A stretch of 64,000 bases of DNA from Carcharhinus longimanus. Lineage: Eukaryota. Positions 14,044 to 48,528 of the stretch are shown here, one piece after another. A model generated the notes under the pieces. The model ran no database searches and was not told the origin of the DNA. It was given only the letters and a program-made list of their open reading frames with translations. A program made the position numbers and the translations under genes. The first letter of the stretch is position 1. Every line of letters starts with the position of its first letter. Location of the stretch: positions 10,742,249-10,806,248 of the forward strand of contig JASCQW010000119.1 in assembly GCA_030264375.1 (NCBI GenBank), given 5' to 3'.

Positions 14044-14619
14044 CACTCAGGAGTGATATTGTCCCCTATGAAAAAGCAGCTCAATTGGAAAGGGTCATTG
14101 CAACCAATATGGAATATGAAGGAGAATACAACAGCAATGGAAAATGAAAATTGCCATTGTAGACAAGGTAAATTGTGGGGTGTAAATTCTACATAAGTAT
14201 GAGTAGTAAAATGTATTCGAACAGTTTAAAGAAACTGCATTTAAACCTAAGAGTACATGGCGGAATCAGAACTAGTAACGTAGTGGAAGTTATTGATGAC
14301 TCGTCAAAGCCTATGAAAAAAAGGCTTAAGCATGAAGTACATGAGTACATTTTATTCAAAATGAGTTAAATATATTTGCAGCTTCAGACAAAATGCAGGT
14401 GTTAGCGGGAGTGACTCTCAGAGAAATCACTCAAAGCTCAGGGTTGGTCCATGCATGAAATGGTTTATTATTGCCAGCGGGGAGATGGCTTATGTTAAAC
14501 TTAGTGCCACTCTCCGACGAACAAAGGAAAAAAAATCCATTCTGATACATTTTTCACGGCTCGACGTTGATTACAAATGACATGCATGTACATTAAAAAA
14601 AACAATACTTAAGGTGAGC

Positions 14620-15145
14620 TTGTGCATGATCTGCTCGTGGTCTCATGGACACGACTCATGGTACCTCCGTCAATATTATCTTTCTTTCTCCTATCTGGAG
14701 CCCTTCAGTGTACAATACTCCTTGTCCAGTGGGCCTCCTTATCAGCCCCCATGATTGTCTTCCCTAACCCTCCATGTCTGATTTTCATCCGAAGCCTCAG
14801 ATCATAGACTAGTGCCAGTCACCAGTATCTGCGGTGCATTGTGCGCACGCTTATGCTGAAGCCAGCGATTGGTGTTCAGGAATGTAGCTGAAAGCTAGCA
14901 TCCATCTTGTGTCGTTTTACTATCCTGAGTTCCTGTATGTTCAATATGTTGAAGTTTTCATGCATGCCCGTCATGATCGTGCAACGGTAAGTTCACATAT
15001 ATTCATTATATGCGATTTATTCCTTCTATTATAAATTGCTATACACGTACCTTTGAATATAAATTGTTATGCTGGTATCTTTCAATATAATTTGTTATAA
15101 GGCACCTAAGCCGAGGATATTGTTCCCTCTAAAACTAGTCTTTCA
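14620..15145 (-). mobile_element. Candidate 3' LTR of the ERV (distal boundary unknown)
   Basis: On the minus strand a purine-rich GAAGGGAGAT (15155-15146) is followed immediately by TGAAAGAC at 15145, about 150 nt after the env stop. No matching second LTR found. Confidence 0.35.
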
Positions 15146-15300
15146 ATCTCCCTTCAACAATGCCCTGCTTTGTAAGTGGCTGCCCTCACCAGCCCCCGAA
15201 GCCGACGTTTCTATAATATATTAAAACGTTTTGGATCGCCCACTATTCCCTGCCTCATTGTGCTGCAGTCACATGATTTCAGGAATAATAGTCGGTTATA

Positions 15301-16970
15301 TCAAATTGAATTTCTCCGAATTACCCTGCCCGCCATGTCTCTTAAGACATTAGCAGTGACCTTCATGCTTTTGTGTTGCTGGTATTTCTTGCTGGACCAG
15401 CAAACGATATTGCATCATGCAAGGACTACTAGTAGTTGTAGGCCTGCTATCATGTGTGAAATGATTCAAATCCACGGGTGTATATTAATATTATTTCCCC
15501 AATCCAACACTCTGCCACCAAATCTCTTCCTGCAATAAAATTTCGGTGTCTTTTCCCAAAGTCTGAATTTTTGTTTGTAGCTGGTGGTATAGCTAAACTG
15601 AGTTTCCGATAAAATCTTAGCTCTCGCAGAGTTTCTGCCAGGTGTGGGATAGGGGAGAGTTCCGGTTCTTTATTGTCCTGTAAGGTATCATGGACTTTGC
15701 GACATTGATAGCCTGTATGCTTCGGCACCAAACTTGAATGATCCTAGCTACGCCTATTCTAACGAGGCCAAAACGCTCTGAAAAAGTACTTGACTTGGGG
15801 GATCATGCACAGCAAGCCATTATAACGATAGGACGTGGCTGAGACAAAGTATCTGCCCTTGATCGTTTATTCAGTGTGGGCAAAATGCCTATAGGTTGGC
15901 TCAATCTCCAGGACTCATCCTTCAGTACGGTTGAAGCCACATGTGCTCATGTCTCCCCATTCAACAGCGTGGGGGCAACAATGATGTCACCTCTCTGCTT
16001 AGACCCCAAAAGGGAGATTCCTTAGAATGAATTGTCCCTACCTATGGCTGCTGCCGAGGATAGGTGATAACAGAGGGAGGCATTTCCTCGCACTACCTCG
16101 ATATTTTCCAATTGGTATAGGGGAAATGGTCCAGAGCCCAGTGTGACTTTAGCGAACATCAGAAACACCCCCAGCCCGGTAGCTTCGCTCATCCCAACAA
16201 CCTGGAACTACTGGGTGTACTCTGCTGAGGCCTTTGAGAATGCATTTTTCCAATGCTCCTGTCCGTGTGGCTGTCTATGCCAGGCGGAAGCTGTCAATCC
16301 AATTGGGTATCTCCCCCCTTTTGATCTGACCGAGATTCTGTCACAACTGTCCCACCATCCATAGGCCGTATGTATGACAAAGTTGTTCCAGTCCTAATCG
16401 TACAGTGTTCTATCAGGTGTTTAATCGTGCGAGCATGGTCCTCCAGCATGTTATTGCATTTAACTGGATATCCATACCCACATCGCCCAAAGCTGCTTGT
16501 CTCTCTTGAGTTTCCTCTGATCGTTTTGGGAAATCCCTCATGACCAATTTAAGTTGTTCCACCTTTCCATTTAACCTCTGGATATCCAAAGGATTTAGCA
16601 GGGAGGTTCCCGTGTTTACCGCTGTGAGCACGTCACTAACTGTCCCTCTGTTTCTCCCCTGTCTCCGAACTCTAGAGGTCCCCATGGCGTCGGCAGCCTG
16701 TCTCATATCAAATTTACTGAAAACAAAACATACAAGTTTTTAGATTTTCTGAACAGTATTCCGGTATGTGAATTGCAGAAATGTTGACCAGAACAGGTCC
16801 AATCTCATGTTTCACATTATCATATCAAATTTCTCCTTCGTTTAAAAGTACAATCCCGTTCTCGGGTCCCTTAAAAAACCATGGGGCATGACAATATTTC
16901 TGGGGAGGGAATAGGAGAGAGCTTTGAATAGAAGGGAAAAACAAACATACAGGAAAAATGCCACTGCATC
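15301..16970 (-). pseudogene. env: Endogenous retroviral envelope pseudogene with class I fusion (paramyxo/pneumovirus F-like) architecture
   Basis: In order, across frameshifts: hydrophobic leader AVAFFLYVCFSLLFKALS; KGPENGIVLLNEGEI*YDNVKHEIGPVLVNISAIHIPEYC; basic site RVRRQGRNR (16673-16647); fusion-peptide-like GTVSDVLTAVNTGTSLLN; heptad LDIQRLNGKVEQLKLVMRD; CHTYGLWMVGQL*QNLGQIKRGEIPNWI; LGVFLMFAKVTLGSGPFPLYQLENIEVVRGN; HR2 YHQLQTKIQTLGKDTEILLQEEIWWQ; Trp-rich LDWGNNINIHPWI; TM IISHMIAGLQLLVVLA; short basic tail to TGA at 15301. Confidence 0.8.
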
Positions 16971-17717
16971 CGTCTCCTCATACTATCAGCATACTCTGAC
17001 TCTCTTTTTGGGCAGTTGGGATGGGCCCAACCTCGGTGCAAGTATAATTCCAAAGATACATCCAACCTTTTTGCGCACTTCCCTGTGGTCCAGACAACCG
17101 GTTGTCCAATCCGAAGTCCATTTGAGAAACACGTCATCCTTGCCCGGATAACTTGTAACCAAGCATTAAAATAAGTCCTATCTTTAGCCCAGTCTTTACC
17201 TGACATAATGCAGATTCAGTCGGTGAAATTGTGCAACGCTCCTCAGCCCATGGGATTTCGACCCGCCAAGGTCGGTTGCATTTGAAGAATCGGGTTGACA
17301 TCATTCTGGGGTTGGGGGGATGGTAGTGAGGGGGCGGGGGGGAGGGGGGCTGTCTTATGAACAGTCTCTCAGGACGATCAGTCCGCAAAGGTTAAGTACC
17401 CATTTGTATTCCATGACTTATGGGTTAAAAAAAAGGAGCCTGCGGTACGAGGTTTTAGAAATCGGTACTCTTCATGTAACTCCTTATGTGCAAGCTGACA
17501 TCCTGGGGATAAAAGGAGAAAATTCGATTTTGGGTTACCTTGGTCGAATTCATGATATTGCCCATTTAAAAATGACATACACCCCATATAAACGAAAAAT
17601 AACCGTGAACGCCCAAATACAATGGGTTGTAGATCGTTAACCCATGCCTGGTACGTTCAGCATACCAGTCGGTTTCCTATATTGGGATTTTGGTAGATTC
17701 AGCCATTACCCTTTGGA

Positions 17718-18200
17718 TTATAACTCCTCAGTTTTCTTTTCAATACAAGCACAAGTGTCACTAGTCATAATGATGTCGTAGGGTCTCGTCCATTTGGCTG
17801 CAAACGTCACTTGTTCAGGGGCCACTTTCACTAATACTTTGTCCCGTGCTGCTGAGCAACTGCAGCTGCCTGCATTCCATCATTTTCGTCACAGAAAATG
17901 TGGAATGGTTTGGTGATGTCAGGAAATCCCCAAACTGGTGTTCTCAAAAAGCCTGCTTCAAATCTGAAAAAGCCTCTACTTCTGCATCTCCACCCCCGCC
18001 CCCANNNNNNNNNNNNNNNNNNNNNNNNNNNNNNNNNNNNNNNNNNNNNNNNNNNNNNNNNNNNNNNNNNNNNNNNNNNNNNNNNNNNNNNNNNNNNNNN
18101 NNNNGCTCTATCTTCCCCTGACTAGACCTTCCTCCATTTATCAAATGCTATGAGGGTTTTACCACTAGGGCATCATCTTCCAAAAAACTTCTGACAACAG
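17718..18200 (-). pseudogene. pol: Retroviral pol remnant: RT thumb/connection fused to the integrase C-terminus
   Basis: RSFLEDDALVVKPS*HLINGG..[gap]..GDAEVEAFSDLKQAF/RTPVWGFPDITKPFHIFCDENDGMQAAAVAQQHG, then DKVLVKVAPEQVTFAAKWTRPYDIIMTSDTCACI. These resemble retroviral AFxxLKxAL..PALGLPDxTKPFxLFVDE and GDxVLVK..PRWxGPYxVILTT. Confidence 0.8.
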
Positions 18201-18639
18201 CTAAAAAGTTTTCAATACTTGTTTTACCTGTTTTTTCTGATGGAAAGCCTTGAAACTGTTTTTTTTTCAAATACTACAAGCTAAGAACATCTTTGAAATA
18301 AAAATCAAATCTGTCAATTTGATTCCATGCCATAACTTACTTCAATTGTTTGTTCTTGTCCTAAATAACATCATTTTATTAAGGTAACTTCCTAACAACA
18401 CATTTTCTTACCTCAGAATCATCCCAAATTCAGGAAACAGTGTTGTCAGCTTTCAAATGCTCATTTGTGCCTATCTTATTTTCTTTTTCTTTGAAGAAAA
18501 CTTTGTTTCTTTATTTATAGCTATCACCTAAACAGCATTCTACTTCCTAGAATCCCATTGCATGTCTCTCTTGTATCCAGTGAATACCACTTTTGATTTT
18601 ATCCTCTTCCGTTTACTGTCAGCTCCTCTCTAACAGAAT

Positions 18640-19233
18640 CGAGACATTAAGTTTACGAGTCGGGAGGAAATCCTGCAACTTTATAAGACCCTTGTCAGAC
18701 CCCACTTGAAGTACTGTGCACAGTTCTGGTCGCCTCACTACAGGAAAGATGTGGAAGCTATTGAGAGGGTGCAGAAGAGATTTACAAGGATGTTGCCTGG
18801 ATTGTGAGGCATGCCTTATGGAGATAGGTTGAGGGAGCTTGGTCTCTTCTCCCTGGGGAGACGTAGGTTGAGAGGCGACCTGATTGAGGTTTATAAAATG
18901 TTGATAGGAATAGATAGAGTGGATTCTCAAAGGCTAATTCCCAGGGCTGAAATGGTCGCTACGAGAGGACACAGGTTTAAGGTGCTGGGAAGCAAGTACA
19001 GAGGACATGTTAGGGGTAAGTTTTTCACTCAGAGGGTGGTGAGTGAGTGGAATCGGCTACCGTCGGTGGTGGTAGAGGCGAATTCTCTGGGGTCTTTTGA
19101 AAGACTTCTGGATGAGTACATGGGATTTAATGGGATTGGGAGTTACAGATAATTCTATGGCCTGGTAGGTATGGATATGATCAGCGCAACTTGTGGCAGC
19201 AACTGTTTGTGCTGTAGTGTTCTATGTTCTATA
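18640..19233 (+). mobile_element. Young 5'-truncated CR1 LINE
   Basis: LQLYKTLVRPHLKYCAQFWSPHYRKDVEAIERVQKRFTRMLPG and ORF 18811-19152 (RLRELGLFSLGRRRLRGDLIEVYKM..FFTQRVVSEWNRLP). Tail TTCTATGTTCTAT. Confidence 0.95.
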
Positions 19234-20065
19234 TCTTTTATTATCCTGTTCATTTTCTTTTCTCATTTATTCCACTGAAGTATTTTCCTCATCTCTAATT
19301 ATATGCATCTGTCAATTTGTTGTTATAGGTGGGCTCTCCCTTTTAGTCCGTCTGGCATCTAATACAGTTTTCAATCTTCCCATATTCATAATTTACAACA
19401 GATCTACTACTCAAATTTTCTAGATGATTCACTGACTTTGCATATCCATGTAACATACTTTAATTACAATGCATTATGACAGTATAGTAGTTCCCATCGT
19501 TAATCACAAAGTCGCATTCTACCGAATGTAAGTCCCTTTTCAGATTTTTTTTATTTTATGTCTTAAAATTACTGCAAGTCTTATAATACAAAGTTCCGTC
19601 CTGTCTGGAAGAGGATGTATTAATTCTCTGTGTGTTTCAGTACGGCGGAGTAAATTCATTCAGATTGACATAATCACTTCAAACGTTCTGGAATACTCTT
19701 TCCATTTATGTTTTCATTGTCAATTCAACCAAGAATACATTTTCAAATTTAATAAAAAGCCTGATCCAGATTAATCCAAAACAAGATTTATTTTCATCAC
19801 TTTTAAACACGTCTACGAAATTAAGACGTTTACAGTTCATCACAATCTTTCCAGTTTAAGCAGAAAATGTGCATGATTAATTATTTCTACAGCTGTCTTT
19901 GCAACCAATACAAGCAGACACAAAATAAAATCAACTATGCGCTGAAATGGTTAACTCTCCTTAAAACTTTTCAGATGTAATGTAGTGCCATCTTTCCCAC
20001 ATGGCAGAACTCAAATTTCTGTCCGATTCCTATTTTTGAAAATGGCCATGGCCTCCACGACTAAG

Positions 20066-20505
20066 GAACCCTGTCCCTGCGCCAATTGCACTACGAAAGA
20101 TTTCAACTGGTGAACGGAATTTATTAAACTTGCACATAGAGGAGCAATTCACTTTGACCTGCGAGTCCCTATTCCACCATATGATGGTCGAGGTCGCACA
20201 ATTACATCCTCTCTCTTCCCATGCCACACGCGGAGAGTCAGTGCCTGCTTGTATATTTTAACCCTTTACTCCCCTCTTTGGTCTTTGACGTTTCAGACCA
20301 ACCTATTTTAACCTGATTTGAGTCACTTTTGCCTTTGCAACGGCACTGGCGTTGATGTCTGTTCTACTCATCGGTGCAACGAAGGTTACCTTAGATTTCT
20401 GGTGGTTGCCTAAAGCCGTTCCTCAACTTTACAAATGATCAACATTATCAAAAGATACTAGCCCTGTCTTTAGTATCGTCTACTGCGCAAGACTCGGGCC
20501 GTAAC
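20066..20505 (-). mobile_element. Candidate 5' LTR plus tRNA-Ser-like primer-binding site
   Basis: Minus strand reads AATAAA (~20125), ..TGCA end at 20087, a 2-nt spacer, then TGGCGCAGGGACAGGGTTC (20084-20066). This is close to the complement of vertebrate tRNA-Ser(UGA) 3' end TGGCGCAGCGAGCAGGGTTC as I recall it. Confidence 0.45.
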
Positions 20506-46170: not shown

Positions 46171-46791
46171 GGACTTCCCCCTTCATAACAAGATATTCTA
46201 AGAAAGATTCCGTTAAACAAATCAAAGCGCGTGTTTGACAGAATTAAGACTGAACTAAAAGGGGGTCATTTCAGTTTTAATGAGCAGAAACCGCCTTCAA
46301 AAAAGAGGTTAGGCGACATCCAAGATGATTTTTTTCGGACGAGAATATAGAAGGTGCTGGTGTTCCTGAACGTTGCAAGGACTACATCCATGTCCGCTGG
46401 TAAAAATCAGCAGACTCTACTAAGATAACATGCACAAAATTGAGGCGTTTATCACTTAAATCCATCTGCAGCCGCCAGTATATCTCTCATATGTTTGATA
46501 AAATAGTCCCGAACGTTGTCCTATGAATAGCAATGTCAGGAGACCGCAGAAGGACAAAAAAAACGGTGTTGGTGTGTTCACTAATCTGTGACTAGATCTG
46601 GCTTACAGCAGGTCAAAATGAAGTCAATCAGTTGGAAAGGACGCGCGAAACTTTGAACAGATCATGTACTCGACAATAGTCATGTGCCCCGCATTTGCCA
46701 GGGAGAGATCATCAACAAACAGCGTATCAAGCTCTCTCAACGCAGCAATTCAGCGTGCAACCTGAGAGATTACTTAAGAGGACGATTGCAT

Positions 46792-46792
<1 letters not shown>

Positions 46793-46865
<73 letters not shown>

Positions 46866-46992
46866 NNNNNNNNNNNNNNNNNNNNNNNNNNNNNNNNNNN
46901 NNNNNNNNNNNNNNNNNNNNNNNNNNNNNNNNNNNNNNNNNNNNNNNNNNNNNNNNNNNNNNNNNAGAGATTACTTAAGAGGACGATTGCAT

Positions 46993-47040
<48 letters not shown>
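46793..47040. repeat. (GT)n microsatellite spanning a gap
   Basis: Direct observation. Confidence 0.98.
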
Positions 47041-47041
<1 letters not shown>

Positions 47042-47130
47042 CATTGTATGTCTTTTTTTGTGTTTTGCGTGTGTGTCTGTTATACGAATCGAAACAGGGC
47101 ACGAGTTGTCAGTAGAACATTTATGCAAGT

Positions 47131-48528
47131 GAAATCAGAATTATTATGGAAGTTGAGTTGTGGATAATAATGAGATTAAAAACAGGTATATCACCAGCGT
47201 CTGATTATGTGAATGCTAGAGTACTTAAAGAGGTGTTCTTCTAAACAGTGAATGCATTTGTTGTCAGCTTCCAAGATTCTATGAAGTCTGGATCATTTAA
47301 TATTAGCTTAGATTGCAAACTTGCGAATGTTAAACAACTATTTTAAAGTCAGATGGAGAGGAACCCACATTATAGATCAATCACCCTGACAGTGCTCTGC
47401 ATTTAATTAATTTATTTAATTCATTACCTCAAGGTTCTCTACATTAATTAAACATTGGCAGAAATTGGCATTGTATGATATGGTAAATTAAGGGGAATAT
47501 TTTGAATGACTATTTTCCTGAATATTTAGGCTCCGTGGTGTGCTGCATGTGCTTAGAACTTTGAAGGTGGAAGCATTCTTTAACTTAGCCAATCATGTGT
47601 GATCTTGCGATCATAACTGGATATATGGGCACAAGAGCTACAATATCAGATGTACATAGAAATATGACATACGAACAAACATGCGCCATTCTACACTTCC
47701 ATCACGCACCGGCACACATTATGACAGTTAGCCTCTTCCTACCTCCACAAACGTAAATCCTTGTTTTGCTTTCACTCCAAGAATTCTATTTCATTTTTCT
47801 TGAAGGCAAACTACGTTCTGTGGTCGTGAATTTCACAGGTTCTCCACTCGCTAACTGAAGTGTTTTTTTTCATTATTCTCAGAATGTGATGCCTAAATCT
47901 GGATTCTCCCCTCCCACCGACGTAAACATCCCCCCTGCATTACCGTTGCGAAGCCCTGTTAAATCCGTCCTCATTCTTCTGAACATCAGCAAATATAATC
48001 CTAACCAACCGCTCTTTTTTCATACACAAGTCCTGCCATCCCATTTATCAGTCTGTATTCAACGCACTGCCTCTATAGACATATCATCCTTCCTCAAACA
48101 GGAACACCAAAACTAGACATAGTATTTCAGGTGTGCCTTCATCAAGGACCTATATAATTGAATCAATTAGATATGCCAAGCACCAATTTTCTAGATTTTG
48201 TCACTGTTTACATGTGTTCTGCTATCAAATCCTTTATGATAGTCTGCAGACTTTCCCATACTACCGACGTCAGCGTGATTGATCTATAATGCGGGTTCCT
48301 CTCCATCTGCCTTTAAAATAGTTGTTTAACATTCGCAAGTTTGCAATCTAAGCTAATATCAAACAATCCAGATTTCATAGAATCTTGGAAGCTGACAACA
48401 AATGCATTCACTGTTTAGAAGAATACCTCTTTAAGTACTCTAGCATTCACATAATCAGACGCTGGTGTTATACCTGTTTTTAATCTAATTGTTATCCACA
48501 ACTCAACTTCCATAATAATTCTGATTTC
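47131..48528. repeat. ~260-bp inverted repeat (47131-47390 / 48269-48528) of CR1 RT sequence
   Basis: Manual alignment gives about 11 mismatches over about 260 bp between the first arm and the reverse complement of the second. Confidence 0.92.

Follow-up and report, generated by a model that had tools for sequence, protein, structure and literature searches.

A stretch of 64,000 nucleotides from the shark Carcharhinus longimanus (assembly GCA_030264375.1, contig JASCQW010000119.1, positions 10,742,249 to 10,806,248 of the forward strand), here termed the window, contains on its minus strand, from 20329 to 14400, a decayed, non-autonomous endogenous retrovirus (ERV). It retains a scrap of the end of reverse transcriptase (RT) with its tether, a scrap of the integrase tail, a broken envelope (env) gene and a 3′ long terminal repeat (LTR). 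An earlier note on this DNA had placed it at 15145..18200, which is too short, and had described pol remnants followed in the same orientation by a decayed glycoprotein, which is correct: the two pol scraps lie on the minus strand and are read in different frames, and the gene after them is recognized by an env profile (best independent E-value, iE, 7e-40). The window has no RT beyond this end, and the first pol scrap matches the tether domain RT_RNaseH_2 of Pfam weakly (E 0.036). The element's own family is termed family A. Family B has gag-pro-pol and an Env predicted to resemble the fusion (F) proteins of paramyxoviruses and pneumoviruses, while the D clade is its sister clade with a gamma-type Env. 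The pol-bearing loci L091, L094 and L095 (D1) and a deleted sister, A′ (L092, L093 and L096-L108), also enter the comparison. The features are as follows.

14400..15159, minus strand: 3′ LTR of family A (TG...CA, about 760 bp), matching both LTRs of the copy on C27 and the ends of other copies
15300..17360, minus strand: decayed F-like env, interrupted by about 14 stops and by five changes of frame
17733..17845, minus strand: scrap of the integrase C-terminal tail, family-B-like by nucleotide and amino acid similarity
17843..17850, minus strand: recombination or deletion junction between tether and integrase tail, spanned by one alignment in seven loci including the window
17850..18234, minus strand: scrap of the RT end and tether (connection domain), family-D1-like, 82-86% identical in nucleotides to L091, L094 and L095; positions 18006-18105 are N
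18250..20329, minus strand: internal block in common with the gamma-Env sister A′, 72-85% identical in nucleotides to most of L092, L093 and L096-L108
18635..19231, plus strand: later LINE-type insertion (repeat family D2), presumably CR1-like, in this copy only; sister copies are continuous across the span

The tether/integrase-tail junction and its parents

The earlier note had suggested that the lineage may be undescribed or recombinant, and recombination is supported by a switch of match partner at the junction near 17845. A single alignment crosses this point in seven loci, the window among them, while 18 other loci (L091-L108) match only upstream of it and family B only downstream. The tether, so close to D1, has no nucleotide match to family B. 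The integrase tail is 68-71% identical to family B in nucleotides and mostly 51-65% in amino acids (range 41-65%), compared with 28-50% in amino acids and no nucleotide match for the D clade. A gamma-type Env was matched in nine of the 18 tether-only loci and in 12 of 20 further loci chosen by RT similarity (one marginal), and an F-like Env in none of either set, i.e., in 0 of 38 D-type loci. One of these, L094, contains an immunosuppressive domain (ISD) as well as a CX6CC motif and matches TLV_coat (E 4e-4). D1 and A′ have one LTR in common, which does not match that of family A, and the family A LTR matches nothing outside family A. On the other side, the family B locus L133 combines, within a single contig, gag, pro, RT, tether, RNase H and integrase with this Env, every one of them broken.

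The element is probably a decayed non-autonomous ERV with a predicted F-type Env, derived from an F-Env virus that acquired a block of its gamma-Env sister. In the simplest reading of these alignments, a double crossover would have inserted the A′ block into the F-Env virus. The two RNAs would have been packaged together and the template switched between them, giving a product in the order F-virus LTR and leader, A′ block, F-virus integrase tail, env and LTR, which would then have been copied with Gag-Pol from a helper. A different and unlikely explanation is that no swap occurred and that the element is an internal deletion of a single autonomous virus in which a D1-like pol was already joined to an F-like Env. 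The pols of families B and D do form one clade (88/88), and internal deletions that retain env exist in the sister A′. However, a simple deletion does not account for a match partner that changes exactly at the junction, from D1 in the tether to family B in the tail, nor for the mismatch between the LTRs of family A and those of D1 and A′, nor for the lack of an F-like Env in all D-type loci.

DNA searches of the shark's own genome found family A in at least 22 places, mostly 68-85% identical, comprising 17 distinct places found with an env probe and five more with an upstream probe. The copy on C27 has a pair of LTRs and a 4-bp target duplication, as well as a His-type primer site, which we take to be complementary to tRNA-His. 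The window contains no tRNA gene and, in a search of all 64 kb, no second copy of the LTR that could serve as the 5′ one. Its copy is dead and has no likely function. The C27 LTRs differ by a Kimura two-parameter (K2P) distance of 0.194, equivalent to about 44 million years (My) if the mammalian rate of PMC7947760 is applied and to an implausible 440 My or so under the shark rate assumed in PMC4422223. Under published rates family A is hence old, by at least tens of My. The sister A′ is abundant and also non-autonomous, having kept its gamma-type env and lost most of pol, and one internal block is common to two defective families that retain env.

The envelope family and its predicted fold

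An env profile built without family A rows matched six stretches of the window between 16884 and 15364, which are distributed over the three minus frames. The decayed gene has a Cys-rich N-terminal domain and an F2-like strand region followed by a basic cleavage site (about 16647), and beyond this a fusion peptide, heptads, Cys-rich beta domains and a membrane anchor (about 15470-15390). The anchor lies some 395 codons after the cleavage site, in agreement with the 400 first estimated. The N-terminal part, on the other hand, had been described as a short subunit with the cleavage site only about 85 codons after a leader. In open relatives the distance from Met to the cleavage site is 217 to 245 residues (238 in L071, 217 in L086, 239 in P0002 and 245 in P0004), and the hydrophobic stretch that the earlier note read as a leader lies within env. 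The subunit of about 235-245 residues consists of a Cys-rich tip of about 150 residues, a Pro/Thr hinge and an F2-like part that makes up only the last 66-76 residues before the cleavage site. Because residues 48-90 of P0004 align to 17278-17150 of the window, the start of env would be near 17350. In a tree, the window Env falls together with that of family B (SH-aLRT 100), and Pfam gave no match for the env pieces of either. As the earlier note had stated, there is no CX6CC motif, nor is there an ISD, in the three minus frames of 15300-17400, and the protein is not a conventional gamma-type Env. Both are also absent from an intact relative encoded on C98 and from seven of eight full-length relatives. 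P0050 has one pattern match, which lies inside the membrane anchor.

The predicted structure of the core of the C98 relative (about 25% identity; 84 aligned natural sequences) supports the F-like assignment made from the window sequence. The AF2 model has a pLDDT of 71 and a pTM of 0.56. With it, Foldseek found 267 matches in the PDB at E<=1e-3, headed by the F proteins of respiratory syncytial virus (RSV; E 5e-12), human parainfluenza virus 3 (hPIV3) and Newcastle disease virus (NDV), and all 45 of the matches listed are paramyxovirus or pneumovirus F proteins. VIA placed F proteins at ranks 1-9 (Z 10.0-11.2, root-mean-square deviation (rmsd) 5.4-20.7, 279-329 residues aligned), including 8w3p_F (Z 10.8, rmsd 5.8, 292 aligned), followed at ranks 10-11 by foamy virus Env (Z 8.3; 8rm0_A, rmsd 5.3, 273 aligned). 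In BFVD the top matches are baculovirus F and lispivirus glycoproteins, and the Envs of walleye epidermal hyperplasia virus 1 (WEHV-1; E 1.8e-8), feline foamy virus (7.5e-8) and walleye dermal sarcoma virus (WDSV; 1.3e-6) also match. The ESM Atlas returned PF00523 clusters at 0.92 for the C98 relative. This protein is predicted to have the F-type layout throughout, with F2 strands before a cleavage site and a fusion peptide, then long heptads and Cys-rich beta domains, and finally a C-terminal heptad and a transmembrane segment (TM). The family is accordingly modeled as a class I fusion protein of the paramyxovirus/pneumovirus F type, predicted to work like those proteins and like the Envs of lokiretroviruses and foamy viruses. 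It would be cleaved by furin into a subunit of about 240 residues, bearing a swappable tip and the F2-like strands, and an F1-like fusion subunit of about 400.

When 1.84 billion representatives were searched with a profile of this Env family, 67 matched at E<=1e-3, and word-index protein searches with env gave one and two. The proteins are about 680-750 residues long and come from sharks and a skate as well as from frogs (Mustelus, Chiloscyllium, Heterodontus, Pristiophorus, Rhinoraja, Pelodytes, Mantella and Bombina, with Lithobates from the word-index search; species were sought for ten of the 67 matches, and two of these had no name). The tip domain is Cys-rich in families A and B, absent in P0047 and Ig-like in some members, among them some frog Envs, as judged from the UniRef name of P0017 and a Pfam V-set match on P0037 (E 0.045). 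Several near-identical intact Envs occur in frogs (P0050 in Mantella, 16; P0067 in Bombina, 3; P0086 in Lithobates, 14; and P0025 in Pelodytes), which suggests that the frog members were recently active. ERV-Epsilon-Lpi was rejected as a possible earlier description of them, since PMC12690878 assigns it an alpharetrovirus-like env of the gamma type. Env pieces are also found inside two shark gene models, P0036 (an fbxo15 isoform of Heterodontus) and P0033 (Niban1-like, Pristiophorus), and these may be annotation artefacts or exonised ERVs. In passages of PMC11089739, PMC12583693, PMC12690878, PMC13524379 and bioRxiv 2023.10.26.564176 the family is not described. No description of it or of the C98 gene was found elsewhere, although subscription journals and bioRxiv supplements were largely outside the search and a prior description is possible.

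The pol lineage and related retroviruses

The autonomous relatives show which pol is involved. Family B RT scored 145 bits against murine leukemia virus (MLV), 141 against foamy virus and 86 against Ty3 in the PDB. In 131 columns of L146, counted by hand from alignments printed in the supplement of PMC7947760, 64 residues are identical in snakehead retrovirus (SnRV), 52 in WDSV and 45 in Loki-Pma. The motifs WPV.KPD.S.RLTIDY, LDI.NGFWS and LPQGFH.SP are those of SnRV, the form in families B and D being LPQGFHNSP, and the class I motifs QDLR and DL..AFF are absent from their RT. In an RT tree of 34 rows and in a longer Pol tree of 28 rows (P0108 omitted, its RT being identical to that of P0107), each unrooted, families B and D, together with minnow and other relatives, form the clade noted above, apart from family C. 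In both trees (90/89 for RT, 0.994 for Pol) they fall off the gamma/epsilon side holding P0109 and P0111, which are class I by motif against the PMC7947760 supplement. The class I-like pol of the earlier note is therefore not upheld. Only two parts look epsilon-like (both by eye), namely RNase H, where families B and D have the Y.D..YA.GVVHD motif as in WDSV, and the integrase tail, for which the earlier note had also seen gamma/epsilon-like motifs. Sequence comparison suggests that the helper belongs to a fish and shark clade between SnRV-like and gamma/epsilon retroviruses, adjacent to SnRV, not lokiretroviral and not clearly class I.

Family C (L078, L084, L086, L140-L142 and L147) has an SnRV-like pol by motif, whose nearest named matches are "NYNRIN-like" amphibian proteins, and many decayed copies. 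Its Env is a more distant member of the same F-like family (30-35% identical). The SnRV and CmiERV lineage I (PMC4422223) is the one that family C resembles, while the B/D clade differs from it in its separate position and WDSV-like RNase H. SnRV Env itself appeared in no search result.

Lokiretroviruses carry an Env that is related to the F proteins of Mononegavirales. It has a signal and an RXKR site, followed by a fusion peptide, a coiled coil and a TM, they have the same dual tether plus RNase H (PMC7947760), and the GP-x-x-G-I-V-L motif of Loki-Bsp Env resembles the start of the core here. That the element is a chondrichthyan lokiretrovirus is nevertheless highly improbable and largely refuted already. 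The two lokiretroviral RTs compared have PFGY-x-NSP rather than LPQGFHNSP, the count for Loki-Pma is well below that for SnRV, RNase H is WDSV-like, and the lokiretroviral Env lacks the tip domain of about 150 residues. In Loki-Bsp the signal is followed directly by the F2-like part, with about 100 residues to the cleavage site as opposed to 217-245 here. The earlier note had likewise been inclined to set the element apart from this group. The host list of PMC7947760 does not include cartilaginous fish.

A further explanation sees in the element nothing more than a usual epsilon-like (class I) ERV with its native epsilon-type Env, in which case neither pol nor env would be a new lineage. WDSV uses a His-type primer site, like that of the C27 copy. 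Furthermore, the WEHV-1 and WDSV Envs match the model, RNase H resembles that of WDSV, and Pfam MLVIN_C occurs in neighbours of two close RT relatives (P0090 and P0092). This explanation is still quite improbable, as B/D lie away from the gamma/epsilon side by their RT motifs and in each of the two trees, the WDSV and WEHV-1 Envs have 1159-1317 residues compared with about 680-750 here, paramyxovirus, baculovirus and lispivirus proteins outrank them in BFVD, and, apart from one repeat protein, none of the 67 profile matches is as long as WDSV Env. The earlier note had assumed that epsilon Env is of the short-TM, CX6CC type. This does not agree with the predicted match of the walleye virus Envs to the F fold, nor with bioRxiv 2021.11.23.469661, where epsilon Env is neither gamma- nor beta-type. 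Foamy virus Env has an F-like core as well (PMC11468914; PDB 8RM0/8RM1), but the Env here lacks its long leader peptide and large inserted receptor-binding domain, and the pol is not foamy by motif. Since the Envs of WDSV, WEHV-1 and foamy viruses also match the fold, the pairing of this pol with an F-like Env is less singular than had been proposed. Frequent recombination between pol and env is known in anamniote ERVs, including the class III, SnRV-related ERV-SA (bioRxiv 2021.11.23.469661). The D and A′ elements fit the description given there, while that survey covers gamma- and beta-type Envs only and the exchange proposed here involves a gamma-type and an F-like Env.

Several results weigh against the derivation of the element from an F-Env virus and its gamma-Env sister. 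An autonomous provirus carrying the family A LTR did not turn up, so that family B, at 49-58% amino acid identity, stands in for the parent on the F side. Protein searches did not identify the coding origin of the 2-kb internal block at 18250..20329, which gave no protein match and no tblastn match to pol-bearing loci and is possibly a decayed gag region. The fold was obtained with the C98 relative and not with the window's own Env, TM-scores are modest (0.25-0.45 in Foldseek PDB and BFVD), and the family C Env model is poor (pLDDT 46, 65 fragments) and has no Foldseek match at E<=1e-3. Pfam Fusion_gly was unmatched among 32 proteins scanned (7+6+19, not all env), where Baculo_F on one protein (E 0.0011) is the sole F-related sequence match, and PDB sequence and profile searches with env gave no match below E 0.2. 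The RT ranking is a hand count and not a tree with named reference viruses. Reference RTs were sought in IMG/VR, where none of 22 pattern matches was confirmed, and hence the unrooted trees contain no named virus.

An intact envelope gene and the history of retroviral envelopes

The C98 relative (G000 C98:82.07 Mb; L151:1456-3717) is a stop-free gene of 753 codons outside the window. Its protein has a hydrophobic N-terminus and an RKRR site, and a splice-acceptor-like sequence lies directly 5′ of the ATG (by eye). No gag or pol match was found within 80 kb at E<0.01. It is 86% identical to GCC29952.1 of Chiloscyllium punctatum, which by similarity appears to be its ortholog, the next match of similar length being 26% identical. 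Runs X2-X4, which belong to three organism codes, contain the gene with both flanks at the depth of a single copy and with no indels listed in the frame. For X4, 40 of the 45 differences are listed, of which 31 are synonymous, nine non-synonymous and none a stop, giving a pN/pS of 0.08-0.13, or at most 0.20 should every one of the five unlisted differences be non-synonymous (p<=1e-7). Divergence within the frame in X4 is roughly half that of the flanks (p 4e-5). Run X1, which we guess to be of RNA origin, covered only short pieces of it. Being intact, single-copy, orthologous and under purifying selection, the gene is a candidate domesticated envelope, and from its sequence it is likely that the host has kept it for its own use. 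Five loci (L182-L186) hold decayed fragments 30-70% identical to it, with no pol match within 10 kb, and seem to be what is left of the viral family that gave rise to it. Co-opted foamy viruses reportedly exist in geckos and may be a precedent for the capture of an F-fold env.

Captured, intact and syntenic env genes of the syncytin type have been described in sharks (bioRxiv 10.64898/2026.05.06.723177), and the C98 gene is like them in these respects. That screen used syncytin queries and required an ISD plus CX6-7C, from which it follows that the C98 gene would not have been retained.

Three further observations concern other sequences. In the window, a 260-nt inverted repeat (47131-47390 and 48269-48528; 96% complementary, 878 nt apart) lies near a switch in GC skew and is possibly a DNA transposon or an assembly fold-back. 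At 46765-47063, duplicated sequence and a TG microsatellite flank an N stretch on both sides, which is likely an assembly overlap. At L118:3179-4123, beside an ERV remnant, is an open frame of 315 codons that resembles an intronless G-protein-coupled receptor.

The origin of the retroviral Env is open, and four scenarios have been put forward (PMC7947760). In this one shark genome an F-like Env accompanies pols of two clades that are distant from each other (B and C), and a gamma-type Env on the D clade, the sister of B, with the window family as a fossil recombinant at the boundary, and models of epsilon and foamy Envs have the same fold. With Envs distributed in this manner over pol clades, the question of which Env came first becomes testable with trees. 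A broader interpretation, put forward tentatively and with slightly less than even confidence in all its parts together, is that aquatic vertebrates have an undescribed F-type Env family with a swappable tip (Cys-rich, Ig-like or absent), which moves between SnRV-like and epsilon-adjacent pols and swaps with gamma-type Envs at a junction that can be mapped, and that one shark member was domesticated as a conserved single-copy fusogen or restriction factor that syncytin screens do not see. If true, the F type would be the old retroviral envelope and the gamma type its replacement. The value of the locus is in a mapped swap between gamma-type and F-type envelopes together with an intact, selected gene to which the family led. 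This C98 gene is a concrete candidate for a captured envelope in sharks that is not of the gamma type.

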